From: Candidatus Andersenbacteria bacterium RIFCSPHIGHO2_02_FULL_46_16
Lineage (GTDB): Bacteria; Patescibacteriota; Andersenbacteria; UBA10190
Length of the DNA: 64,000 nt
Assembly (NCBI GenBank): GCA_001817065.1
Contig: MHHQ01000009.1
Location: 16,211 to 80,210, forward strand
Reading direction: 5' to 3'
Notes under the pieces: model-generated
The model's database searches: none
The model's input: the letters and a program-made list of their open reading frames with translations, nothing else
What the model was told of the DNA's origin: nothing
Made by a program: the position numbers and the translations under genes
Shown: positions 1 through 60,376 of the stretch, piece by piece
How positions within the stretch are numbered: the stretch's first letter is position 1
How the letters are laid out: every line of letters begins with the position of its first letter

Positions 1-38
1 AACGAGATCTGGTCAAGTTATTTATTTACGGCGCCTAA
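1..38. repeat. Partial copy of MITE family 3 (terminal segment), truncated by the window edge
   Basis: Positions 1-35 (aacgagatctggtcaagttatttatttacggcgcc) closely match the terminal ~35 nt of the copy at 60335-60376 (gaacgagatctggccaagttatttttggatggcgcc). Confidence 0.4.
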
Positions 39-1588: not shown

Positions 1589-2599
1589 TTAGTTGGCGGC
1601 AGTTATAGCTTGCATGTTTCGCAGCATTAAGTCGATGTAGCTATCGTGAGGATCAATGCCACCGGTTGGATCAATGGTCATAATTTTTAACTCAAATTCC
1701 TGCTGCATTAGACGGATACCGGCAGAGGTTGTTTTTTGCGGCTCGGTGTAGAAAGATTTTATCTGGTACTGCTGGATTAGCTGTTGCAGTCGTTGCAGAT
1801 CATTGATGGTAGGGGTGCGACCTTCCAACGGTTCATAAGTAGCGACTAGGGAGAGACCATAATGTTGCGCAAAATATGACCAGGCATCATGCACGGCAAT
1901 AAAGTTACGCTGGGTGGCTTGGGAAGCTAACTGTTGGAGTTCCTGTTCCAGCTGGTCGAGCGAGCGGAGGTAATTGGTAAGATTGGTTTGATAATCGGTG
2001 GTGTTGGTAGGATCGATGCGGATTAGTTCTTGGGCGATGGTGGACGCGATAGCCTGTGCATTGGGTACTGTTAACCAATAATGCGGATCTTCGTTGGAAC
2101 TTTCGTGATCGGAATCGGTTTGATCAGAGTTCTCGAGATTGGGGCCAAATTCACGCAGAGTAATGTTTTGATCGACTATGATGGTTGAGTAAGGCAAGGT
2201 CTTAAAAGCAGAATTGACGCCTCGTTCATCGCCAATGGCTTTAAGGGTGGCGTCAGTAACGCGTTGGTCTAAACCATGTCCGATGGCAAAGGTGGTTACC
2301 ACGTATGTTAATTGTCGGATTTGCTGGGGGGTCAGGTTAAATGAGTGGGCAGTGGAGTTGCTGGGAATTAATTGAACGACTTGGGCATGCGGTCCAGCAA
2401 TTTGTCGCGTGATATCGGCTAAAGGAAAAATAGTAGCGGCAACAACTAATTGATCGGGAGGAGGGGATGGGGGGCGAGTCAAAATTATGCCGGCTAACAA
2501 GGCAAAGGCAACTAGGATTATGAAAAACAAGAGGATAACAAATTCTTTATTCATAAAGTGTTTGATGGGGTAAAAATAAGTTAGCGAAAAATTTCCCAA
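1589..2599 (-). CDS. Metal ABC transporter substrate-binding protein (ZnuA/TroA family)
   Basis: N-terminal TM anchor. HDAWSYFAQHYGL-type motif and His/Asp/Glu-rich loop typical of cluster A-I metal-binding SBPs. Alternative start at 2554 (MNKEF...). Confidence 0.75.
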   Translation of the reverse strand: MGNFSLTYFYPIKHFMNKEFVILLFFIILVAFALLAGIILTRPPSPPPDQLVVAATIFPLADITRQIAGPHAQVVQLIPSNSTAHSFNLTPQQIRQLTYVVTTFAIGHGLDQRVTDATLKAIGDERGVNSAFKTLPYSTIIVDQNITLREFGPNLENSDQTDSDHESSNEDPHYWLTVPNAQAIASTIAQELIRIDPTNTTDYQTNLTNYLRSLDQLEQELQQLASQATQRNFIAVHDAWSYFAQHYGLSLVATYEPLEGRTPTINDLQRLQQLIQQYQIKSFYTEPQKTTSAGIRLMQQEFELKIMTIDPTGGIDPHDSYIDLMLRNMQAITAAN

Positions 2600-6037: not shown

Positions 6038-6080
6038 AACACTCACAATATTCTGATTTAGATGGTTTTGAACTGGTGAT

Positions 6081-6129
6081 CCCACTGTGCAGAAAACCAC
6101 CCCGCCGCAGGCGGGGTGGGGGCTCCATT
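6081..6129 (+). repeat. Family-1 GC-rich element, short 'solo hairpin' copy
   Basis: gtgcagaaaaccaccccgccgcaggcggggtgggggctccat. Shares the 5' (gcagaaaacc) and 3' (ggggctccat) termini of the long copies at 7209 and 26478, and contains a perfect 10-bp hairpin. Confidence 0.5.
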
Positions 6130-6181
6130 AGATAATTTTAGCAGCAACGGAGCGGAAATTAGTCAGGCTGGTGATGGGGGA

Positions 6182-7042
6182 TCACTTGATTGAGTCTTTA
6201 ACTAACGCTAACGCACCATAAAATGCTCGATCGTCGCCGAGTGTGGCTGGTTTGATGACGGGTGGGGTGGGTATGAAAGAAGTAAGATTGGTGGTCGCTT
6301 TGATAACCTGACCTAGGGGGATGTCTCTCATCATGGGTCCACCCAGGACTATAACAGAAGGGGACCATAAGAAAGTGATATTGGTTAAACCGTAAGCGAG
6401 CCACTCAGCTAGTGATGACCATACTTGCGGATCCTTAATGGCTTTGGGGTGGCAATTGAATCGTTTGGCGATACTGGCACCGCCGACTAAGTCTTCGAGT
6501 GAAGAAGGGCTATGGCAGTCGGGGCAGAGAGTACCGCTGGCATCGATAATGTGGAAGCCTGGCTCAAAGCCATACGAATTAGCATCAATCTTTTGATTGA
6601 CAATGCGTGCGCCGCCAACACCGGTGCTGATAGTTAAATAGGCAACAATATCGAAATCACGGCCAGCTCCACTGCAGGCCTCACCCAGGCCAGCGAGGGC
6701 AGAGTCATTGATAATGCGAACCGGAACCTGCGTCAGGTTCTCCAGCTCTTCTTGGATAGGATGACCGATCCAGTCGCTTAAATTTGGCGAGGCGGCTAAG
6801 CGACCCGTTTCTTTATTCATGGTTCCGGGCAAGCCAACAACGACACCTTGAATCGGCTGGTCAGCAACTAGAGGAAGGATTTGGGCGGAGAGGGCAGCGA
6901 TAGCTTCGGTAAAAATTGGCGGGGTAGGGCATTTAACAGGCGGGGTAAACGCATCTGGTGAAGACGTGGTGGTAATACGTGTGTTGGTGCCGCCAATATC
7001 AAGAAAGAGAAACATGAATGTAGTATAAAATTCAAATGACAA
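6182..7042 (-). CDS. ROK-family sugar kinase (glucokinase-like)
   Basis: N-terminal LFLDIGGTNTR ATP-binding motif, GLPG, and a CPDCH zinc-motif region typical of the ROK family. Confidence 0.7.
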   Translation of the reverse strand: MSFEFYTTFMFLFLDIGGTNTRITTTSSPDAFTPPVKCPTPPIFTEAIAALSAQILPLVADQPIQGVVVGLPGTMNKETGRLAASPNLSDWIGHPIQEELENLTQVPVRIINDSALAGLGEACSGAGRDFDIVAYLTISTGVGGARIVNQKIDANSYGFEPGFHIIDASGTLCPDCHSPSSLEDLVGGASIAKRFNCHPKAIKDPQVWSSLAEWLAYGLTNITFLWSPSVIVLGGPMMRDIPLGQVIKATTNLTSFIPTPPVIKPATLGDDRAFYGALALVKDSIK

Positions 7043-7208
7043 AGTTCAAATATTCTGAAGGGATTTCCTGGGGGTAAACTTTGATATAACGATAATAAAC
7101 TTAACAAACAGAAAGGACCAGAGTAGCACGATCCTTCAAACAACGAACTCTAAAGTGTAAATGTCAAAGTTCCCTCCTTCGCTCGATTAAAAGCTAAAGG
7201 AAATTTTA

Positions 7209-7428
7209 TTCCACGGTGCAGAAAACTACCCCGCTGGTGGTGGTTGAATCAGCTGTCGCCAATGCTTTGGCCGACAAGACAAGGTGCGAATGGGATAATC
7301 CCTCGCTGCCATTCAAAGCTCCGTGAGCAAGGGAGGGTAGCTCCGCCGATAGCGGAGCAAGTGAGATTGACAGTTGGCTGCTACGCGGGATTCCGCTCCC
7401 AGTCCAGGGGGCGGGATGGGGCTCCATG
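7209..7428 (+). repeat. Family-1 GC-rich structured element, long copy A (~220 nt)
   Basis: Shares termini and an internal core (ccattcaaagctccgtgag..., gctgctacgcgggattccgct...cagggggcgggatg) with the copy at 26478-26702. Three overlapping ORF-track ORFs here are judged spurious. Confidence 0.5.
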
Positions 7429-9506: not shown

Positions 9507-10221
9507 GTAAAATAGGCTTTAATGGGCCATAATATTGATAGAAAAATGAGACAGAGGCACTAGTTTATTTTGTCAGCTAGTTTTGACAAAATTTATAAAT
9601 GCTCGCACAATCCTTATGTGTGGTTCCTTTTATGTTATGTCGAGGCCTTTTTTGCAAGGACGTTGGTATGGGTAAGCTGCATGAATTCTCTTTCCGATCC
9701 ATGTTTGGACGGGACATTAGTGATGGGGATGTGAGAAGGATGTGCAAAGGAATGACGTGTTGTTTATCCGGAAAACAGATTAAGCACGATACCTGGCTGG
9801 CGATCGTACGAAAGCGGGGGAAATTGTGCGTTTGTTTACCGGAGCATGTCAATGGCCACGAAACTTGCGTTCCAACAAGAGAGATGGTCGAGAAGTTAGT
9901 ACCGGGTCTGAGCAGTATGAACTTAACAGTACTGGATCGCTATTCGACGGGAACACGGAAGAGGAAACGGGCGAAAGCTGTTGCTGGTGTTTAACGATGG
10001 TAGCGGGTGTTGTTGCTTTTTTCCTTGATCTCATTGGAGTATTGGAATGACGAAGAAACCTGATGGGAAGAACAAGAAGCGATTGGTGACCAGCGGTTCT
10101 GGAGAGGGTATCTTCTATAACCCCCCAAAAACGATACGGCGTCACAAAGCTCCTGGGCCCAATGTCCGTGTTTACCTGCCGCCGACCCGAAAATAGCGAA
10201 GGCATCGAGATATTCTCTTTA

Positions 10222-23483: not shown

Positions 23484-24127
23484 TTAAGTTAATAGACGAA
23501 GTGGCACTTTAATAATAATTTTTTGCACAAAAGTAGTAGAGGGATGAGAAAAACCAGGCCGGTGGGCGTCATAGGGGAAAAGAATTGCGACATAGCGGGG
23601 CAGCATGGGAATAGATTGGGCGGCTGGTGTGGGATTGTATAGGACATAGTCTTCTTGGTCATTCCGCGAGACTGATATTAGACCGTCGACGGGAACTACT
23701 TGAATGATTTCGCTACCCGATAAACAAATATGGACATCTATAGATGTCACATTATGAAATGCCACTCTTAAATAAACGGGTGGCGGCGCGGGGGACCCCC
23801 ACCGAGCGCCTGCAGGCTGCCCGCCTGGCAGGCCGAAGCCGTCGGGTGGGGGTGCAGCGCCGACAGGGCCCGTCACTATATTTGTGGCATTTCATAATGT
23901 GACTTCCATATGTGACGCATATGTGACTCATATTTATCAGAGCTGGACTTTGTGGTGGGTATGGTTTTTAAATAAGCTTTAATGGTTGGGAGATTCGGAT
24001 TAATAAAAGTGTTGTTTTGATCGGAGAGCGGTATCTGAGTAAGCCAGGTAAAAACGGTGCGCCAAGCGGGATGTGGCAGTTGTTCATACACCTGGGCAAG
24101 GTTGTCCAGATCGCCAATGATAGACAT
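23484..24127 (-). pseudogene. YhcH/YjgK/YiaL (DUF386, NanQ-like) family gene disrupted by a MITE insertion
   Basis: The upstream fragment (24127->~23906: MSIIGDLDNL...KYESHMRHI) and downstream fragment (~23745->23484: ...HICLSGSEII...AILFPYDAHRPG...KIIIKV) together match the ~155-aa DUF386 layout (MIIG.L.NL, (E/K)xHxxYIDIQ, FFP.D.H.P, KVVVKV). They are separated by the 160-nt TIR element and lie in different frames. Confidence 0.5.
23737..23910. mobile_element. MITE family 2, copy 1 (TIR-flanked GC-rich core) inserted in the DUF386 gene
   Basis: 20-bp perfect terminal inverted repeats gtcacattatgaaatgccac (23745-23764) / gtggcatttcataatgtgac (23884-23903) flank a GC-rich core homologous to the element at 56639-56864. 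Confidence 0.5.
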
Positions 24128-26379: not shown

Positions 26380-26477
26380 TGCAGTTTAGGATTGTTGCGA
26401 ATAAGGCACTTGTCGAGCAAGGTGTGATTTTTAATTAGTGTTTGACACTTGTTTATACCAGTAAATTTTACAATTTA

Positions 26478-26702
26478 TTCCACTGCGCAGAAAACCACGC
26501 CGCCGGTGGCGGGGGTGGATGAATCAGCGTCGCCAAGGCTTTGGCAGACAAGGAATGGGATAACCTCGCACTACCATTCAAAGCTCCGTGAGTAAGTGGG
26601 GTAGATAGTTGGTTGCTACGCGGGATTCCGCTATCCCACCCAGGGGGCGGGATGCCCCGTTATCGCGGGGACCGCCCCGCCTGCGGCGGGGTGGGGCTCC
26701 AT
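26478..26702 (+). repeat. Family-1 GC-rich structured element, long copy B (~225 nt), with hairpins at both ends
   Basis: 5' hairpin ccacgccgcc-ggt-ggcgggggtgg and 3' hairpin ccgccccgcc-tgc-ggcggggtgg. Internal core shared with copy A. Followed by a further GC-rich structured tract to ~26950. Confidence 0.5.
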
Positions 26703-39173: not shown

Positions 39174-39279
39174 GTTTAAAAACTTTATAAACCTTAACAA
39201 AACGATAACAAACTTAACACACAGATGGGATAAACTGATAAATATTTTCAATTTTTGAATTTACTTTTAATTTTATTTT

Positions 39280-40784: not shown

Positions 40785-41048
40785 GTGATTGTCGTGGATA
40801 ACAAGAGTCTTAGTTTATGGGCAGCAGTCTTACTGCTTGTGGGTGGTTTGGTGCATTTGATACCGGGACTGTATTCCGGTTTGACTGGTTTGACAGGAGG
40901 TTTCCCGTGGATTCAGGTCGTGGTAGGTATTTTGTCGGTGATTGTGGCTTTAGTCATGTTTGCAGGCGACAAGCAGGATGGTAATGAGACTACAAAAAAC
41001 GAACCAGAGAAGCCGCCAGTTGACAATAATATAAAAGTTAATGGATAA
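40785..41048 (+). CDS. Small two-TM membrane protein, hypothetical
   Basis: 87 aa, two hydrophobic helices, polar tail. Confidence 0.35.
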   Translation: MIVVDNKSLSLWAAVLLLVGGLVHLIPGLYSGLTGLTGGFPWIQVVVGILSVIVALVMFAGDKQDGNETTKNEPEKPPVDNNIKVNG

Positions 41049-41139
41049 AACTGCCGGTTGAGATATGGGGGGGGCTGTTCTTCCTGGGAGATTGAATTAT
41101 CAGTACCTGTTTTCAAAGGTATTGATTTTTCTATCCTAG

Positions 41140-41265
41140 CGAGAGCTCCACGGGCGTAAGCCCGTGGGTGAGAGCCGTTCCGACAGCAGTCGGACAGGCA
41201 ACACCTGCTCCGTTGTGGTTAGAACCACGGGCGTAAGCGCGTGGGTGTCTATAGGTGAGTTATAA
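41140..41265 (+). repeat. Tandem-hairpin structured element
   Basis: Two near-identical hairpins (ccacgggcgtaagcccgtggg and ccacgggcgtaagcgcgtggg) ~60 nt apart, flanked by ctatcctag/ctatagg. Confidence 0.3.
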
Positions 41266-41806
41266 AAATTTTGCTGGACAAACGAAATCTATGGGAACTT
41301 ACGGTGCTGGTTGGTGTTACGGTGTTGGCAAAGGATGTGGGGAAGGCACAGAACAAAAGGGATGGAAAAGAAAACCCCCGTGACAAATTGTCATAACGGG
41401 GAAAGAGAGCAAGGTAGACAAGTATTTTGTCTAGGGAAGGAAGATCAATAGTTTTCGGACAAAATTTTTTGAGCCTCTAGACTAAGTAGTCGGCTGTTGT
41501 GTGGGCCTGGGCCGTAAGTAGGTTCACCGAATAACCCGATATGATGGTTCGCGCATGATTGAAGGTGAACGGGAAAAGTACGAAGAGGTATTGGTTGGTT
41601 ACAGATGTTGCACGTTTGAGTTTTGTCGTCCTCACTATTGTTGCACATGAGATTCTTCCTCGAAGTTGGTGAAGGAACCATCAAGCTAAGTAAATTGTTA
41701 TTAGTGTAGCGATTAGAAAGTGACGTGTCAAAGAGGAGTGGTGGAGTGGTGGAGAAAAGTGATGTTACGCAGTGAGCGGCAATGATTTGGTAGGTGAAAA
41801 CAATTT

Positions 41807-41995
41807 TACTAAGGCGCCATCCAAAAATAACTTGGCCAGATCTCGTTCAATATGCGTCGAGATACGGCTTTTCCAATTGAGCGAACCAGGAGCCGTAGCC
41901 AAGCTACGGTGAGTGGTTCGCGATTGAAGAAAAGTCGTAGATTGGCGCATAGTGGGCGAGAGATGGTTAAGTTATTTACGGATGGTGACTAAGGC
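41807..41995 (+). mobile_element. MITE family 3 copy with 8-bp target-site duplication
   Basis: Direct repeat ACTAAGGC at 41807-41814 and 41988-41995. Imperfect ~22-bp TIRs (gccatccaaaaataacttggcc / ggttaagttatttacggatggtg). Structured core (gcgaacca-ccgtagccaagctacgg-tggttcgc). Confidence 0.55.
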
Positions 41996-42037
41996 TGATT
42001 ATAATTTTATTGATATTACGGTATGCTAGGTTAGAAG

Positions 42038-42640
42038 ATGGCTAAGTTATCAAAATTTGAGCAGTGGTGGCTGAACGCTTGGCCGCACCGATTACATGTC
42101 CGGAGATTTGTACCAAAGTTTTTACGGGCGTGCCCGGAGCCTTTTCGAGGAGAAGTTTTGGAAGTGGGGGCGGGCAGCGGTTGGTCCTCCAGAATGATTT
42201 TAGATACTTTTCCACAAGTCGAATTGACTGCCTCTGATGTTGACCCAAAAACAAAGAGCAAATTTGAGCGTATACGGAGCAAGTACGGGCAGCGGTTGAT
42301 TTTCAAGCAAGCGGACTTAATGAGCTTACCCTTTGATCGAGAGTCATATGACCTCGTCTTGGCTATTCATGTGCTCCATTACGCCTTCGATTTACGAGGG
42401 GCAATTAGACAGTTTATTCGAGTATTGCGACCAGGCGGTTTGCTGGGTATTGGTGATTTTAATCCTAAGTATCAGCGCGGTATATTAAAAAAATTCTTTC
42501 CTACATCGTCTCTGCCCTGGCGCAAGATGATGACGGATATGTTGGTAGAGGAAGGTTGTGAAATCTTGGTGTCGCAAGGTGAATTACATTATTACATTTG
42601 GGCGCGAAAGCCATACCCGATAGAACCAAAGCGTGATTAG
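42038..42640 (+). CDS. Class I SAM-dependent methyltransferase
   Basis: VLEVGAGSGW motif I. 200 aa. Confidence 0.7.
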   Translation: MAKLSKFEQWWLNAWPHRLHVRRFVPKFLRACPEPFRGEVLEVGAGSGWSSRMILDTFPQVELTASDVDPKTKSKFERIRSKYGQRLIFKQADLMSLPFDRESYDLVLAIHVLHYAFDLRGAIRQFIRVLRPGGLLGIGDFNPKYQRGILKKFFPTSSLPWRKMMTDMLVEEGCEILVSQGELHYYIWARKPYPIEPKRD

Positions 42641-42651
42641 GGAACAGAGTA

Positions 42652-42987
42652 ATGAAGTTAATCAAAAGATCAGAACTTGAGTGCGAACCCATCTCGCATA
42701 ACCCTGAGTTATTAAAGACGGTTTGGATAAGAAAGGGGATAATACGGCATTTAACTTTCCTGTCAGAAACAGAGATCCCGGCAGGAAAAATTGTGGCTTC
42801 CCATTCACATACAGATATGACTGAAGTATTCATTGTTACTTCAGGAATAGGATCATTTCAGGTCAATAAAAGTACGTATAATATTAGGGCAGGTATTAGT
42901 GTGGTGATAGAGCCGGGTGAGACACATACGATTGAAAATACCGGGCGGGACCCATTAAAGATGACCTATTTTGGCATTGCTTATTAG
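42652..42987 (+). CDS. Cupin-domain protein
   Basis: HSHTDMTEVFIVTSG...GETHTIENTG, the two-motif cupin pattern. 111 aa. Confidence 0.65.
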   Translation: MKLIKRSELECEPISHNPELLKTVWIRKGIIRHLTFLSETEIPAGKIVASHSHTDMTEVFIVTSGIGSFQVNKSTYNIRAGISVVIEPGETHTIENTGRDPLKMTYFGIAY

Positions 42988-43114
42988 CTGAGTGAGGGCC
43001 AGTAAGTGTTGCGGCAGGTTTGGTATAATCGGTCTGTTTTGGTATTTACGGGCAACAAAACACAACAAAACACGCTATTGACTATGGCGATCGCTTGTCG
43101 CATGCTGCTAAGTT

Positions 43115-44626
43115 ATGGCAATCGCATATAAAATAAGTTCTGTACGGCCGGTCAAGGCAGAAGTTGAGGTGTTAGCAATACCGCGGCAAGACGTAAAGTC
43201 ACAATGGGTGGGGTGGCCGAAGAAAGCGGTTGATAAATTAAAGAAAGAATTGCGTCGCCGCGGGTGGCAAGCACAATGGAGCCAAGTAGAAATTCTAGCT
43301 GAGGCAAAAGTAGGTCGCGCGACGCTTTTGGCCATGATTGGTTTAGGCCAGAATGAGAATAGCGCGCGACAACAGGAAGCCTTGCGACGCGGTATGGCCA
43401 GTGTGGTTAGTGAAGCAGGCCGGCTGGGTTTAAGAACAGTAGGGATTGATTTGTTGAGTAATAGTCTGGGGGCAGACATGGCAGCAGCAGCGGTAGAAGG
43501 AATAGAAATGGTTAGTTATGGTTTTACTGCCTATTCACGTAAGCTTGCTAAAAAACAGAAGAAAAGTAGTATCAACCAAGTAGTGCTGTTGTGTCGCGAG
43601 GAACAAGCAATGGCGGTGCGTCGAGCAGTTCAGCAGACCAAGCAGTTAATGAAAGGAGTGGAGTTAGCTAGGGATCTGGTTAATAAACCGGCCGGGGATA
43701 TGTCGCCAGTCAAATTGGCTAAGGAGGCGCAAGGGATAGCGAGGAGGTCTAAACTGATTAATGTTAATATCTTAAACCGTGAACAAGCACGGCGGGAAAA
43801 GTTCAACGCCTTTTTGGCTGTGGCGGGTGGGTCGGCCGAAGAGCCTTGTGTTATTCACCTCAAATATGTACCGATCGCCGGAAACAATAAGAGAAAGAAA
43901 TTATGGGTAGTAGGCAAAGGAGTTACTTTTGATTCCGGAGGTTTGAGTATTAAACCGGCGGAGCATATGGAGTTGATGAAAAGCGATATGGCTGGGGCGG
44001 CAGCAGTGTTAGGTTTATTTGCGGTATTGGAACGAATGGCGTTGGATGTGGAAGTTCATGGCTTGATAGCGGCCTGTGAAAATATGCCTTCTGGCACGGC
44101 TTATCGTCCGGGTGATGTCTTAACCGCCTTGAATGGAAAAACAATTGAGGTATTAAATACGGATGCGGAAGGGCGAATTACGTTGGCAGATGCGTTATCT
44201 TTTGCAGCGAAGAGTGAACCAAACGCCATTATCGATCTGGCCACATTAACTGGGGCCTGTCTGGTAGCATTGGGGGAAACGGTGGCTGGGTTATGGAGCA
44301 ATAATGAGGAATTAAAGCAAAAAGTAGTGCAAGCAGCCAACCAAACGGGGGAGAGAGTAGAAACAATGCCTATGCCTGAGGAGTATGAAAGTAAGCTAGA
44401 TAGTCCCATTGCTGATATGCAGAATATACCCAGTTCTCGCTATGGTGGGGCTATATCTGCCGCGATGTTCTTACGTGAATTTGTCGGAGATGTGCCGTGG
44501 GCACATTTGGATATTGCTGGTCCATCGTATGTGGAGCAGCGGTATTTGACTTATTGGAATCGAGGGGCCACTGGTTATGGTGTCAGGTTATTAGTGCGCC
44601 TGTTGGAGGATATTGCGGCGAAGTAA
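43115..44626 (+). CDS. pepA: Leucyl aminopeptidase (M17 family)
   Basis: NTDAEGRITLADAL signature and the VGKGVTFDSGG metal-site region. Confidence 0.85.
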   Translation: MAIAYKISSVRPVKAEVEVLAIPRQDVKSQWVGWPKKAVDKLKKELRRRGWQAQWSQVEILAEAKVGRATLLAMIGLGQNENSARQQEALRRGMASVVSEAGRLGLRTVGIDLLSNSLGADMAAAAVEGIEMVSYGFTAYSRKLAKKQKKSSINQVVLLCREEQAMAVRRAVQQTKQLMKGVELARDLVNKPAGDMSPVKLAKEAQGIARRSKLINVNILNREQARREKFNAFLAVAGGSAEEPCVIHLKYVPIAGNNKRKKLWVVGKGVTFDSGGLSIKPAEHMELMKSDMAGAAAVLGLFAVLERMALDVEVHGLIAACENMPSGTAYRPGDVLTALNGKTIEVLNTDAEGRITLADALSFAAKSEPNAIIDLATLTGACLVALGETVAGLWSNNEELKQKVVQAANQTGERVETMPMPEEYESKLDSPIADMQNIPSSRYGGAISAAMFLREFVGDVPWAHLDIAGPSYVEQRYLTYWNRGATGYGVRLLVRLLEDIAAK

Positions 44627-44642
44627 GAGGGAATGTGTATGA

Positions 44643-45452
44643 TTAGGCTGATTTAATCAGAGGGCGTAATAACAAAGAGATTATAAATAGAACGGAACCG
44701 ACTAATACCACCGTGGGGCCGGAAGGGGTGTTTAGAGTGGCGCTGAGAAACAAGCCAAAAACCATGGAGATTAAGGAAAGCGCGACACTTCCTGTGAACA
44801 TGCTAGTGAGCGAGCGGGTAAGGTTTTGTGCCGTGGCGGCGGGAATAACCAGTAAAGCGGTTACTAACACAACGCCGACTAATTTGATAGCTAAGGCTAT
44901 AAGTCCTGCCAGCAATAACATAAAGAGCAGTTCGTAGGTCTTGACGTTGATGCCTTCCGCTTGGGCCAGGTTAGCGTCAAAAGTAATGGCAATAAAATGT
45001 TTGCCAGAAAAAATAATAATAATTAGAGCGATCAGAGAAACCGCTACCGTAAGGTAAATATCGAACTGGCTTACAGCTAAAATGTCGCCAAACAAAAAGC
45101 TGATTAGATCGGATTGGTATCCGGGGGTAAGTTGCACCAGGATAACACCGAGCGCAACCGAACTTGAGAAAAGGACGCCTAATAAGGTGTCGAGTGGCAA
45201 CTTAGTATGACTGGCGGCGAGAGAGATGCCGATAGCAATGACTAGAGTGAAGATTAAGGCACTTAAGTAGGGATTGATATGAAGCAAAAGACCCAAGGCG
45301 ATGCCGGTCAAGGCTGCGTGGCCAATCGCGTCAGAGAAAAAAGACATACGTCTTAAGACAACAAAAACACCAACAATAGCCATCAAGACGCCGAGAATAA
45401 CACCGATGATTAAGGCTCGTTGGAAGAAGGGGAGGAGAAGTAGGTCAAGCAT
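44643..45452 (-). CDS. Metal ABC transporter permease (ZnuB/TroC-like)
   Basis: 8-TM permease of the ABC-3 family. Same strand as the ATPase at 45780-46526. Confidence 0.75.
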   Translation of the reverse strand: MLDLLLLPFFQRALIIGVILGVLMAIVGVFVVLRRMSFFSDAIGHAALTGIALGLLLHINPYLSALIFTLVIAIGISLAASHTKLPLDTLLGVLFSSSVALGVILVQLTPGYQSDLISFLFGDILAVSQFDIYLTVAVSLIALIIIIFSGKHFIAITFDANLAQAEGINVKTYELLFMLLLAGLIALAIKLVGVVLVTALLVIPAATAQNLTRSLTSMFTGSVALSLISMVFGLFLSATLNTPSGPTVVLVGSVLFIISLLLRPLIKSA

Positions 45453-45592
45453 GAGTTAAATTATAACGTAAATAAAAATAGAAAATAATCCGTACTTGGA
45501 GAACGATGGGATCAACATAGGCCCCATGAAGACACTCGGCGATGTGTCTTCATTTGTTGGTAGGATGATTTGGAATTTGGTTTTTGACATGG

Positions 45593-45779
45593 GGATTTAG
45601 GCACCGCAACGAAATAATTTCTTAAGGTTTCGTTCAAGATGTGTCCAGCTATGGCTTTTTCGATTGAGCGAAATACGAGGCGTAGCCAAGCTACGGTGAG
45701 TATTTCGTGATTGAGAAAAAGTCATAGATGGGTGCAGATTGGGCGAAAGGTGGGAAATTATTTTGTGGCGGTGCCTTAG
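45593..45779 (+). mobile_element. MITE family 3 copy (diverged) between the metal-ABC ATPase and permease genes
   Basis: TIRs ggcaccgcaacgaaataatttc / gaaattattttgtggcggtgcc. Core (gagcgaaatacgaggcgtagccaagctacggtgag) homologous to the 41807 copy. Short TTAG repeats flank it. Confidence 0.5.
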
Positions 45780-46526
45780 TTAACGATGGTCATGCAGGAA
45801 GTGTCCTACTTCCGTACCATACATACGCTGCAGGGTTTCGTTAGTCAGGACTTTGTGGGGAGCACCGGCGCAAAGCAGTCTTCTGTTTAAACAGAGTACT
45901 TGGTCGGCATAATTCATAACGATTTGCAGCTCATGACTGATGAGAACCATGGTTAATTTCTCTTCATGTTGGATGCGAGAGAGGAGGGTATAGATGGTGT
46001 CTTGTCCTTCGGCATCAATGCCGGCAGCTGGTTCATCCAGAAGAAGTACTTTAGGATGGTCCATTAGACTGTAAGCGAGAATAATACGCTGCAGCTGACC
46101 GCCTGATAAAACACTAAGTCGACTGTTGATCAAGTGCCTAGTATTAGTTTTTGCAAGGAGGTCGTGCATATGTCGTTTTTCGATGGGGCTTAAACCCAGG
46201 GGGCGTGGTGATTTTAGAGAAAAGAGACCGGCTACAGTCAATGGGAACTGGTGGTCAATGTTGATGTATTGAGGGATATAGGAAACTAAGGGAGCGATTT
46301 TGTGATATTGGTCATGGTTGGTATCCATTATTTCGACCGTCCCGCTTTGTTTAGGCAACAGATTTAAGATGCATTTGATCAGAACGGATTTGCCGGCACC
46401 ATTAGGTCCAATAATAGCGGTAACTGAGCCAATGGGCACTTGAAAAGATATACCATCGATAATGCGGTGTTTGTCCAGCTCCACAACTAAGTTTTGCACA
46501 TTTAACGCCAGGGTCGGGGTGGTCAT
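45780..46526 (-). CDS. Metal ABC transporter ATP-binding protein (ZnuC-like)
   Basis: Walker A GPNGAGKSVL, signature LSGGQLQR, Walker B LLLDEP. 248 aa. Confidence 0.85.
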   Translation of the reverse strand: MTTPTLALNVQNLVVELDKHRIIDGISFQVPIGSVTAIIGPNGAGKSVLIKCILNLLPKQSGTVEIMDTNHDQYHKIAPLVSYIPQYINIDHQFPLTVAGLFSLKSPRPLGLSPIEKRHMHDLLAKTNTRHLINSRLSVLSGGQLQRIILAYSLMDHPKVLLLDEPAAGIDAEGQDTIYTLLSRIQHEEKLTMVLISHELQIVMNYADQVLCLNRRLLCAGAPHKVLTNETLQRMYGTEVGHFLHDHR

Positions 46527-46563
46527 AAAAAATAATTGTTATTCTTTATGTTACACTAAGGTG

Positions 46564-48297
46564 ATGGTGGATGATAATAATAAAAACGTATTAGTGGTTT
46601 TGGCGGAGCAGGGGCTGATAAAAGGCGAGAGTCAGATTAGTGACATCACGCAGCAATTAGATGGTGGTGCCACCCTTGACCAAGTATTAGTGGAAACAGA
46701 TTTGGTTGAGCCGGAGGCTTTGGCCAAAGTCAGAGCGCAAGTGGCGGGGCTGCCTTATGTGGATTTACGGGAGAAACAAATACCTAAGAACGTACTTGAT
46801 ATTATTCCGGAATCAACGGCACGCGGGCACATGATCATCGCTTATGAGCAGACTGATAACGTGGTACGAGTAGCTATGTCTGACCCAAGCGATCGACAAA
46901 TTGTCGAATTTATCCGAAAGAAGGTGGATCGACCAGTGGAGGTAGGTGTCGCATCGGCGGGGGCGGTGAGGAACACATTAGGTAATTATCAGGAGAGTCT
47001 CGAGGCGGAATTGGATGATGTGGTAAGTAAGGAACTAAAATTGGTAAATGAAATAGTGAATGATTTAGGCAAGGCAGCGGAAGACCTACCAATCGTCAGG
47101 ATTACTCAAGCAATTTTAAAACATGCCATAGTGGAGGGAGCGTCAGATATTCACATTGAGCCAACAGATAAGGACGTCATTATCAGATACCGGGTGGACG
47201 GCATTTTACACGATATGTTGGTATTACCCCGGGCAGTTTTAGCTGGATTAGTAGCGCGGATAAAAGTGTTGAGTAATCTGAAAATAGATGAACATCGGTT
47301 ACCGCAGGATGGTCGATTTATGATTGAGTCGGACGAATATAAAGTGGCTTTCCGTGTTTCCACCTTACCGGTGTTTGATGGTGAAAAGGTAGTAATGCGT
47401 TTGTTGGATGAGTCGGGTAAAAAGTTGAGTTTGGATGATATCGGTATTAGACCGGCCGCTTTAGAACTGATGCGACGGATTATAAAACGTCCACATGGCA
47501 TGGTGTTAGTAACTGGCCCAACTGGATCTGGTAAAACAACCACGTTGTACGCGGCCATGAAAGAAGTTAATACGGCGGATGTTAATATCAGCACTATAGA
47601 AGATCCGGTGGAATACCGAATGCCGCGGATAAATCAAACACAGGTTAAACCGCAGATTGGCCTAACTTTTGCTAATGGATTAAGAGCGCTGGTTAGGCAA
47701 GATCCTGACGTTATTATGGTCGGCGAGATTAGAGATGAAGAGACAGCTTCCTTGGCGATCAATGCTGCCTTAACCGGACATTTGGTTCTGACTACTTTGC
47801 ATACCAACAGTGCAGCTGGCGCGATACCGCGGATGCGAGACATGAAGGTTGAGGCTTTCTTGTTGGCCTCAACCGTAAATTTGATAATGGCACAACGGTT
47901 AGTGCGGAAATTGTGCGTGAAGTGTCGCAAGGAGCGAAAGCTAGACGCGCAGGTTATTGGAGAAATAAAGAAGGAGTTTAATAGTGAAGAAATTTTCAAA
48001 ACCTTAGTAAGGGAAAAAGTAGTGAAAGAGGGCTCAGGCTGGAAGGATGTTGTAATTTACCAGGCAGTGGGATGTAAGAGGTGCCACGATGGATATAAAG
48101 GCCGTATAGGGATTTATGAAACTATGGAGATAACACCGGAGATACAGAAGATGATTAAGCCAAGCGTAACAGCAGAACAAATAGAACAAGCGGCCAGAGA
48201 AAATGATGGCATGGTAAGTATGTTAGAAGATGGGATAATTAAAACGGTGGAAGGTACTACTACGCTGGAAGAGGTGCTTAGGGTAGCGCGAGAGTAG
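46564..48297 (+). CDS. pilB: Type IV pilus assembly ATPase PilB (GspE family)
   Basis: GspE N-terminal domain, Walker A GPTGSGKTTT, Asp box, His box and a C-terminal tetracysteine motif (CVKC...CKRC). Start set at ATG 46564 with an SD (aaggtg), to avoid overlap with the convergent ZnuC-like gene. Confidence 0.85.
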   Translation: MVDDNNKNVLVVLAEQGLIKGESQISDITQQLDGGATLDQVLVETDLVEPEALAKVRAQVAGLPYVDLREKQIPKNVLDIIPESTARGHMIIAYEQTDNVVRVAMSDPSDRQIVEFIRKKVDRPVEVGVASAGAVRNTLGNYQESLEAELDDVVSKELKLVNEIVNDLGKAAEDLPIVRITQAILKHAIVEGASDIHIEPTDKDVIIRYRVDGILHDMLVLPRAVLAGLVARIKVLSNLKIDEHRLPQDGRFMIESDEYKVAFRVSTLPVFDGEKVVMRLLDESGKKLSLDDIGIRPAALELMRRIIKRPHGMVLVTGPTGSGKTTTLYAAMKEVNTADVNISTIEDPVEYRMPRINQTQVKPQIGLTFANGLRALVRQDPDVIMVGEIRDEETASLAINAALTGHLVLTTLHTNSAAGAIPRMRDMKVEAFLLASTVNLIMAQRLVRKLCVKCRKERKLDAQVIGEIKKEFNSEEIFKTLVREKVVKEGSGWKDVVIYQAVGCKRCHDGYKGRIGIYETMEITPEIQKMIKPSVTAEQIEQAARENDGMVSMLEDGIIKTVEGTTTLEEVLRVARE

Positions 48298-56638: not shown

Positions 56639-56864
56639 CTATAGACATCACATCATAAAATGTCACTGCAGAATAAGCGGGTGGCGGCGCGGGGGTCCCC
56701 CACCGAGCGCCAGCAGCCCTGAGCCTGCCTACCGGTAGGCAGGCTTGTCGAAGGGCGATGCCGTCGGGTGGGGGGAGCAGCGCCGACAGGCCTGCGGGCC
56801 GAAGCCATAGCGAAGGCTGGACCCGTTTCTTGTCTGGTGGCTTTTCATGATGTGACACCTATAG
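56639..56864. mobile_element. MITE family 2, copy 2 (TIR-flanked GC-rich core)
   Basis: TIRs ctatagacatcacatcataaaatgtcac / gtggcttttcatgatgtgacacctatag. The core shares aagcgggtggcggcgcgggggtcccccaccgagcgcc and gccgtcgggtggggg.gcagcgccgacagg with copy 1. Confidence 0.5.
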
Positions 56865-58510: not shown

Positions 58511-58782
58511 AGATGAAACATACTCAAAACACCCTCCTACGCTAAAGCTACGGATGGGCAGGCAAAGCATAAAACTCAGACAAAGCACAGGTTATTATAA
58601 ACTTTCCAAACCATAACAAATCGGTAACAAACTTAACAAACAACAGACACGAAAATTTCAAGGTCCATCCTGCCTAAAAGCTTCTGACGGGATCCCCTCA
58701 GGACAATTATTAAATAATGACCACTGACCTTGCCTTCCCGTAAGCCGTGGGGGTAAGGTAGGCGATGTGATATTATTAAGGG

Positions 58783-60171: not shown

Positions 60172-60193
60172 GCGGTAAGACATTAAATTAGGT

Positions 60194-60376
60194 AAGTCAC
60201 CATCCGTAAATAACTTAACCATTTCTCGCCCACTATGCGCCAATCTACGACTTTTCTTCAATCGCGAACCACTCACCGTAGCTTGGCTACGGCTCCTGGT
60301 TCGCTCAATTGGAAAAGCCGTATCTCGACGCATATTGAACGAGATCTGGCCAAGTTATTTTTGGATGGCGCCTAAG
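60194..60376 (-). mobile_element. MITE family 3 copy (inverted orientation)
   Basis: Reverse complement of the 41815-41987 element: gtcaccatccgtaaataacttaacc ... ggccaagttatttttggatggcgcc. Confidence 0.5.

Follow-up and report, generated by a model that had tools for sequence, protein, structure and literature searches.

A palindromic repeat family in Candidatus Andersenbacteria, a probable MITE of the IS5/PIF-Harbinger type

What is the palindromic repeat that recurs between genes on a contig of Candidatus Andersenbacteria, and how would it have come to lie within a putative metal-transporter gene pair? Genomes of the CPR (Patescibacteria) are about 1 Mb in size, streamlined and usually called poor in mobile DNA, and they encode few conventional regulators. 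Our full-text literature search found MITEs and CPR mentioned together in a single paper, and there in passing only. We analysed a stretch of 64,000 nucleotides (hereafter the window), for which a sequence-only reading had proposed a MITE family with an 8-bp target-site duplication and four occurrences. Comparison of copies and relatives leads us to regard the repeat as very probably a non-autonomous MITE family mobilised by a DDE transposase of the IS5/PIF-Harbinger type. Elements of this kind are commonplace; the host is not.

Copies, size variants and neighbouring repeats

Three full copies and one truncated copy were recovered from the window, essentially where the sequence-only reading had put them. 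These copies and the genes that border the second of them are as follows.

41813..41989, plus strand: copy c1, short form, 177 bp, with ends GGCGCCATCC...GGATGGTGAC
45600..45775, plus strand: copy c2, diverged subfamily, 176 bp, about 79% identity with c1
60196..60372, minus strand: copy c3, short form, 177 bp, inverted relative to c1, between a 462-aa ORF and pilM
1..35, minus strand: copy c4, truncated by the window start, with a TAA flank at 36-38
45780-46526, minus strand: znuC-like ABC ATPase gene (ABC_tran by Pfam), upstream neighbour of c2
44643-45452, minus strand: znuB-like ABC-3 permease gene (by Pfam), downstream neighbour of c2

Copies c1 and c3 are 99.4% identical and lie in opposite orientation, which bears out the inverted copy previously placed at 60194-60376; a repeat finder reports the pair as 187-nt inverted matches that are 98% complementary. 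A four-way alignment identifies c2 as a direct copy with 77-79% identity and window positions 1-38 as the outer end of c4, the ortholog of which is present in full at L017:1734-1910 with TTA/TTA flanks (L numbers denote loci outside the window). The common core that had been noted is also real, as the 16-nt segment CGTAGCCAAGCTACGG has three exact matches against a chance expectation of 0.32 when up to three mismatches are allowed. At c1, a methyltransferase gene begins 48 nt downstream. Of the neighbours proposed for c3, pilM on the downstream side is supported by Pfam (PilM_2), and the upstream gene labelled PilX-like is a 462-aa ORF that lacks a Pfam match. Orientation relative to flanking genes is mixed, with the element in sense at c1, L023 and L025 and in antisense at c2, c3 and c4.

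An exact-protein look-up of the methyltransferase places the c1 locus in at least six independent assemblies, including Rifle aquifer metagenomes and the MAGs GCA_001817175.1 and GCA_001817135.1. Homologous proteins carry source names that indicate Candidatus Andersenbacteria. Recurrence of the same copies in at least six independent assemblies rules out an assembly artefact as their origin. Further copies came from the methyltransferase-matched loci, from one metagenome pattern scan and from a protein-database search with the element's translation, which finds copies where gene callers placed spurious mini-ORFs. Together with the window, these sources yield nine complete copies at independent sites and several partial or hybrid ones, and at least 10 distinct insertion sites are known for the family. 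The sample of independent sites is thus only about 10, and genome and metagenome pattern scans added few matches: the exact core pattern had none in GTDB species genomes, a relaxed version had 10 there (all single chance matches in unrelated phyla), and a gapped pattern matched only six loci in JGI metagenomes, two of which (L021 and L022) are chance matches. Two element patterns each gave no match in viral contigs, and a distant blastn search of plasmid and phage collections returned nothing that resembles the element. In several independently assembled contigs an end falls within the element (at the window start and in L006, L019 and L020), which is how a dispersed repeat behaves.

The sequence-only reading had allowed that the shared sequence might instead be a conserved protein-coding segment. 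Most frames of the element contain stop codons, and the protein-database search with its translation returned just six tiny orphan 'proteins', none with a Pfam domain. A conserved coding segment is ruled out by the stops and by matches to orphan mini-ORFs only, and the element is non-coding with no conserved reading frame.

Copies fall into three size classes, namely short (176-177 bp), medium (about 208 bp, range 207-210) and long (267-288 bp). The longer classes differ by a 30-nt GC-rich module:

medium copies, L002b/L026, L018 and L033: right arm with module GCCTGCCGGCCGTAGCCTTGGCGAAGGCTG following GATT
long copies, L023 and L024/L025: besides this, a left arm with a related, nested module that occupies the mirrored site and points in the same direction

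The module, 30-31 nt long, reads GCCTGC(C/G)GGCCG(T/A)AGCC...GCGAAGGCTGG and has the form stem-GTAGC-loop-GCGAA-stem, sometimes nested. Its sites are the following:

window 56790-56820
L002:3770-3800
L018:3137-3167
L023:10025-10055 and 10173-10183
L024, L025, L026 and L033

A near-identical module lies inside a second, unrelated hairpin-repeat family (window 56790-56820 and L023:6444-6668), and among the DNA compared the module is confined to variants of these two MITE families. It may represent a very small unit of its own, either mobile or structural.

The window contains other repeats. The second, unrelated hairpin or MITE family occupies window 23739-23910 and 56639-~56858 as well as L023:6444-6668, has ends TATAGATGTCACATYATRAAATG... 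and an interior of GC-rich sub-hairpins. Segments shared by window 6079-7397 and 26477-26691 contain GC-rich hairpins, among them CCCCGCCGCAGGCGGGG, and probably make up a third repeat family. Finally, a 48-nt A-rich motif ending ...AAACTTAACA(A/C)ACA occurs three times (window 39176-39223, 58595-58642 and 7063-7110); each copy is intergenic and adjoins a gene boundary, and the motif may be a promoter or leader motif.

Target-site duplication and empty site

Alignment of all copies, a check that the sequence-only reading had proposed, defines invariant element ends of the form 5'-GGC(G/A)CC...GGTG(A/C)C-3'. The trinucleotide T(A/T)A lies directly outside these ends on both sides. Flanks match as TAA/TAA or TTA/TTA in eight of nine complete independent copies:

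c1, 41810..41812 and 41990..41992: TAA left, TAA right
c2, 45597..45599 and 45776..45778: TTA left, TTA right
c3, 60193..60195 and 60373..60375: TTA left, TTA right in element orientation (plus-strand TAA at both positions)
L017, ortholog of c4: TTA left, TTA right
L002b/L026: TAA left, TAA right
L018: TTA left, TTA right
L023: TTA left, TTA right
L037 (element 141-317): TTA left, TTA right
L024/L025, a complete copy: ATA left, TTA right, mismatched

Because the flanks are identical in direct rather than inverted orientation, the trinucleotide is a duplication and not part of the terminal inverted repeat; were it part of that repeat, a left TTA would pair with a right TAA. Were each flank drawn independently from TAA and TTA at the frequencies observed, all eight pairs would match with P ~0.01. 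Beyond the three bases the flanks disagree, although the preceding base is often C and the following base usually G, so the putative target preference is about C-TWA-G, where insertion often occurs. As read from these junctions, the target-site duplication is 3 bp, TWA (TAA or TTA). A 2-bp TA duplication is ruled out, since TAA and TTA copies would then need different element ends.

The 8-bp duplication originally proposed would imply another transposase class, such as IS1595, IS66 or ISL3. Its direct repeat, ACTAAGGC, does bracket c1, at 41808-41815 and 41988-41995, but it is found at c1 only. There it is composed of 'AC' (from the right end and the left flank), TAA, and 'GGC' (from the left end and the right flank), and the right 'AC' and left 'GGC' are the invariant end bases of the element (GGCGCC...GGTGAC), present in all copies. 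In the eight other junction pairs just the central 3 bp, TAA or TTA, agree. At the empty site described below, a single TAA is present and insertion adds 176 + 3 bp. We therefore consider an 8-bp duplication refuted by the copy alignment and the empty site, and accord the associated transposase classes next to no probability.

Orthologs of the ZnuB-like protein led us to syntenic loci from three related lineages. L034-L036, with ZnuB 97% identical, are collinear with the window over 18 kb at 87-91% DNA identity, and L034 provides an exact empty site for c2: AAC-TAA-ACC, compared with AAC-TAA-[176 bp]-TAA-ATC in the window. The znuC-znuB spacer of L034-L036 reads ...GACCATCATTAAC-TAA-ACCCCCATGTC..., and the window on the same strand reads ...GACCATCGTTAAC-TAA-[176 bp]-TAA-ATCCCCATGTC..., so that L034 has one TAA (minus strand) and no element at the c2 site. 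BLAST alignments between the window and L034 stop exactly at the c1 and c2 boundaries. Copy c1 is absent from L034, L027 and L030, where the empty site is not base-exact and the left junction has diverged; no copy was found in the syntenic stretch compared in any of L027-L032 and L034-L036, which represent the three related lineages. At the level of sequence, this comparison shows that the c2 insertion duplicated TAA at a pre-existing single TAA. Since copies that are 99% identical occupy different loci and are absent from a relative about 90% identical in DNA, the comparison also shows a hairpin family that has, on this evidence, been recently active.

Insertion in znuCB and rearranged junctions

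Pfam assignments uphold the placement of c2 between two minus-strand genes, one for an ABC_tran ATPase and one for an ABC-3 permease. The copy is antisense to the znuC-like and znuB-like genes between which it lies. Its right TTA (45776-45778) is one base off the znuC-like stop codon (45780-45782, minus strand), and a 147-nt spacer remains between c2 and the znuB-like ATG. In the most distant relative, L030 (ZnuB 74% identical), only 3 nt separate the znuC stop from the znuB ATG. Spacers of the two closer lineages show that a length of 149-186 nt predates the insertion, with 149 nt in the closest (L034), and a TATAAT-like box near znuB can be recognised by eye within this pre-existing 149-nt spacer. 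Because the spacer and its TATAAT-like box existed beforehand, these comparisons suggest that the c2 insertion may be nearly neutral with respect to a putative effect on znuCB expression, for which the sequence-only reading had proposed a possible change in operon polarity or an internal regulatory RNA. Its position within znuCB offers a natural test of the effect of an 80-bp stem on operon expression in a CPR organism. The genes of the transporter are split in the window, where a ZnuA-type periplasmic binding protein gene (1589-2599, minus strand) lies 43 kb from the znuCB pair. Another insertion abuts a gene at L002:3651-3653, where the upstream NTP_transferase gene has the duplicated TAA as its stop codon, so that the insertion left the end of the reading frame intact.

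Several junctions outside the window are rearranged. On the JGI contig L002 (9600-10020), the pilM-side flank of c3 is joined to the methyltransferase-side flank of c1, such that pilM (minus strand) adjoins the methyltransferase gene (plus strand), and the junction copy has mismatched TTA/TAA flanks. An inversion of the 18.2 kb that separates c1 from the oppositely oriented c3 would be expected to yield this arrangement. Since the duplications of c1 and c3 are matched and GC skew is uniform across the segment, the window has the original arrangement, and L002 arose by a recent inversion or is itself a chimera of assembly. At L005:353-555 we identified a hybrid element with a left half from another subfamily, a right half from c1, TTA/TAA flanks and a different left neighbour, and at L033:780-1000 the pilM-side flank of c3 is joined to another locus, with an element of the medium form. 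The L002, L005 and L033 junctions could reflect either element-mediated recombination or assembly artefacts, between which short-read contigs cannot discriminate. Dispersed repeats that are 99% identical can rearrange small genomes, and they certainly break or mis-join metagenomic assemblies, as at these three loci.

The hairpin, its origin and its relatives

The arms of the element pair along its whole length and make it an imperfect palindrome from end to end, in which the terminal GGCGCCATCC pairs with GGATGGTGAC. The ~22-bp terminal inverted repeats previously assigned to it turn out to be merely the tips of a palindrome that spans the entire element. Predicted folding is stable, with -53.8 kcal/mol (z = -11.1) for c1 as DNA and -63.2 kcal/mol (z = -11.2) for c2 folded as RNA of the operon strand. 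Five distinct copies give a consensus fold of 71 pairs, with 96.3% of cells paired. Compensatory changes, in which both sides differ, occur at 11 pairs, compared with 5.1±1.5 in shuffles (none of 500 reaches 11) and 0-2 in slid controls, and six of the 11 sit in the inner helix. The alignment thus shows a hairpin maintained by compensatory change.

The two strands of the hairpin are not equivalent. Read along the plus strand of c1, here called forward, the stem has about 10 G·U pairs, against 0-2 on the reverse strand, and minimum free energies of the forward and reverse strands are -108.6 and -74.9 kcal/mol, respectively, for RNA and -53.8 and -43.1 kcal/mol for DNA. Mismatches between the c1 arms comprise nine G·T and one A·C, and the forward strand of c1 has 53 G and 34 C. 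Since the hairpin is kept by compensatory changes and is far stabler on one strand, the pattern suggests that its single-stranded form matters, whether as RNA in transcripts or as DNA while the element is replicated or transposed. The base composition of the region permits another explanation. GC skew is strong and uniform, at +0.21 to +0.29 in every 4-kb bin of window 1-64000, where G+C is 44-49%; most long ORFs of the window lie on the plus strand. The element's forward-strand G excess equals this genomic skew of ~+0.25, and mutational bias is therefore a live alternative to selection on RNA or single-stranded DNA. Acting on a long-lived master copy, such bias could explain part of the asymmetry without RNA-level selection; given a 1.67:1 bias, at least nine G·T among 10 mismatches has P ~0.06.

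These properties bear on two accounts of the repeat that differ from the MITE assignment. One gives RNA function the leading part: the repeat would be a structured RNA, such as a hairpin for regulation or processing or a family of sRNA genes, RNA function would have driven its spread and conservation, and its transposon-like features would be secondary. It would account for the 11 compensatory stem pairs, six of them in an inner helix far from a plausible transposase-binding end, and for one-sided changes that almost always give a forward-strand G·U and leave a gap of about 30 kcal/mol between the strands. Template switching in quasi-palindromes during replication can also produce concerted changes in both arms, however, and the G excess equals the genomic skew. 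Rfam gave no match at the gathering score for the window, nor at E <= 1 for the element. Consensus scanning of 41000-46600 found fewer promoter-like sites than in shuffles, and the whole element forms no terminator, with no T-run tail after the stem. With orientation relative to flanking genes mixed and close relatives that lack the element at the same loci, we consider a primary RNA function unlikely, despite the precedent of Correia and ERIC hairpins that act on mRNA, with known effects through RNase III/E (PMC10969869).

The strand asymmetry and the GTAG-containing GC-rich sub-hairpins of the longer variants would also suit a palindrome moved by a single-strand (Y1/HUH) transposase, either of the REP/BIME-RAYT kind or as an IS200/IS605-derived PATE. 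Such systems make no target duplication and insert 3' of a fixed tetra- or pentanucleotide, whereas here the flanks co-vary in eight of nine copies and the empty site reveals a duplication; 177 bp far exceeds the length of a REP, and scanned ORFs and gene tables contain no Y1 transposase or RAYT gene. This origin is accordingly very improbable. Two other structured elements were also rejected. An integron attC site does not fit 99% identical copies that have a target duplication and no cassette array, nor does a retron msr/msd fit a dispersed repeat that lacks a reverse transcriptase gene. A broader proposal combines strand-specific selection on the hairpin as RNA or single-stranded DNA, in a domesticated or dual-purpose role such as a processing or stability signal, with the 30-nt 'stem-GTAGC-loop-GCGAA-stem' units of two unrelated MITE families as perhaps a separate, undescribed module; we hold it to be doubtful.

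The MITE assignment made by the sequence-only reading is sustained by a small, non-coding, multicopy element with inverted ends, a target-site duplication and an exact empty site in a close relative. At 176-288 bp, the copies lie within the size expected of prokaryotic MITEs (about 50-800 bp); their inverted arms, which pair over the full length, exceed the minimum of 10-15 bp, their 3-bp duplication falls within the expected 2-10 bp, and dispersed copies exhibit presence/absence polymorphism. The TWA form of the duplication is that of IS5/PIF-Harbinger-derived (Tourist-like) elements. Tourist MITEs mobilised by PIF/Harbinger, such as rice mPing, are recognised by their 3-bp TTA/TAA duplication (PMC2836001), and Harbinger groups phylogenetically with the IS5 family (PMC12730594), on which basis we attribute the repeat to this type. 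A 176-177-bp non-coding palindrome would thus insert at T(A/T)A and duplicate those three bases through cut-and-paste by a DDE transposase of the IS5/PIF-Harbinger type, presumably supplied in trans. No transposase and no autonomous partner with the same ends emerged from the window ORFs scanned or from gene tables that cover about 300 kb at related loci, and viral contigs contained no partner. Once dispersed, near-identical copies would provide sites for homologous recombination or points at which assemblies break, and the single-stranded hairpin may act as RNA or as DNA in replication or transposition. Prokaryotic MITEs typically give stable full-length hairpin transcripts (PMC10969869).

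In a CPR host, at least five copies of one recently active MITE family within about 70 kb, together with at least one further hairpin-repeat family, would imply a working transposase in the Andersenbacteria lineage, now or recently. Insertion polymorphisms of this kind could serve as strain-level markers for aquifer populations. The points of note are the streamlined CPR host, the strand-asymmetric conservation of the hairpin and the GC-rich modules common to another repeat family.

A comparison with known systems places the element closest in its junctions to Tourist/mPing and IS5, with which it shares a TTA/TAA 3-bp duplication, termini that start with GG, a short non-coding body and a transposase that would act in trans; as in Tourist/mPing, the exact empty site keeps one copy of the trinucleotide. 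It differs from Tourist/mPing in its CPR bacterial host, in a superfamily assignment that follows from the duplication alone, and in being a full-length palindrome where those elements have short terminal inverted repeats around an unrelated core. It has no sequence similarity to known elements in Rfam or in plasmid and phage collections. In architecture it resembles Correia elements of Neisseria and ERIC/IRU elements of Enterobacteria, which are intergenic imperfect palindromes of 100-180 bp that form long RNA hairpins if co-transcribed, can sit in operons and provide copies as recombination substrates, as here. Correia and ERIC duplicate TA, whereas this element duplicates TWA, and its sequence is unrelated to theirs. 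Length variants of ERIC arise by internal insertions at fixed sites. The GTAG-containing, GC-rich small hairpins of REP/BIME resemble the 30-nt modules of the longer variants; unlike REP/BIME-RAYT, this element as a whole is AT-moderate, spans 177 bp and duplicates its target, and no RAYT gene was seen.
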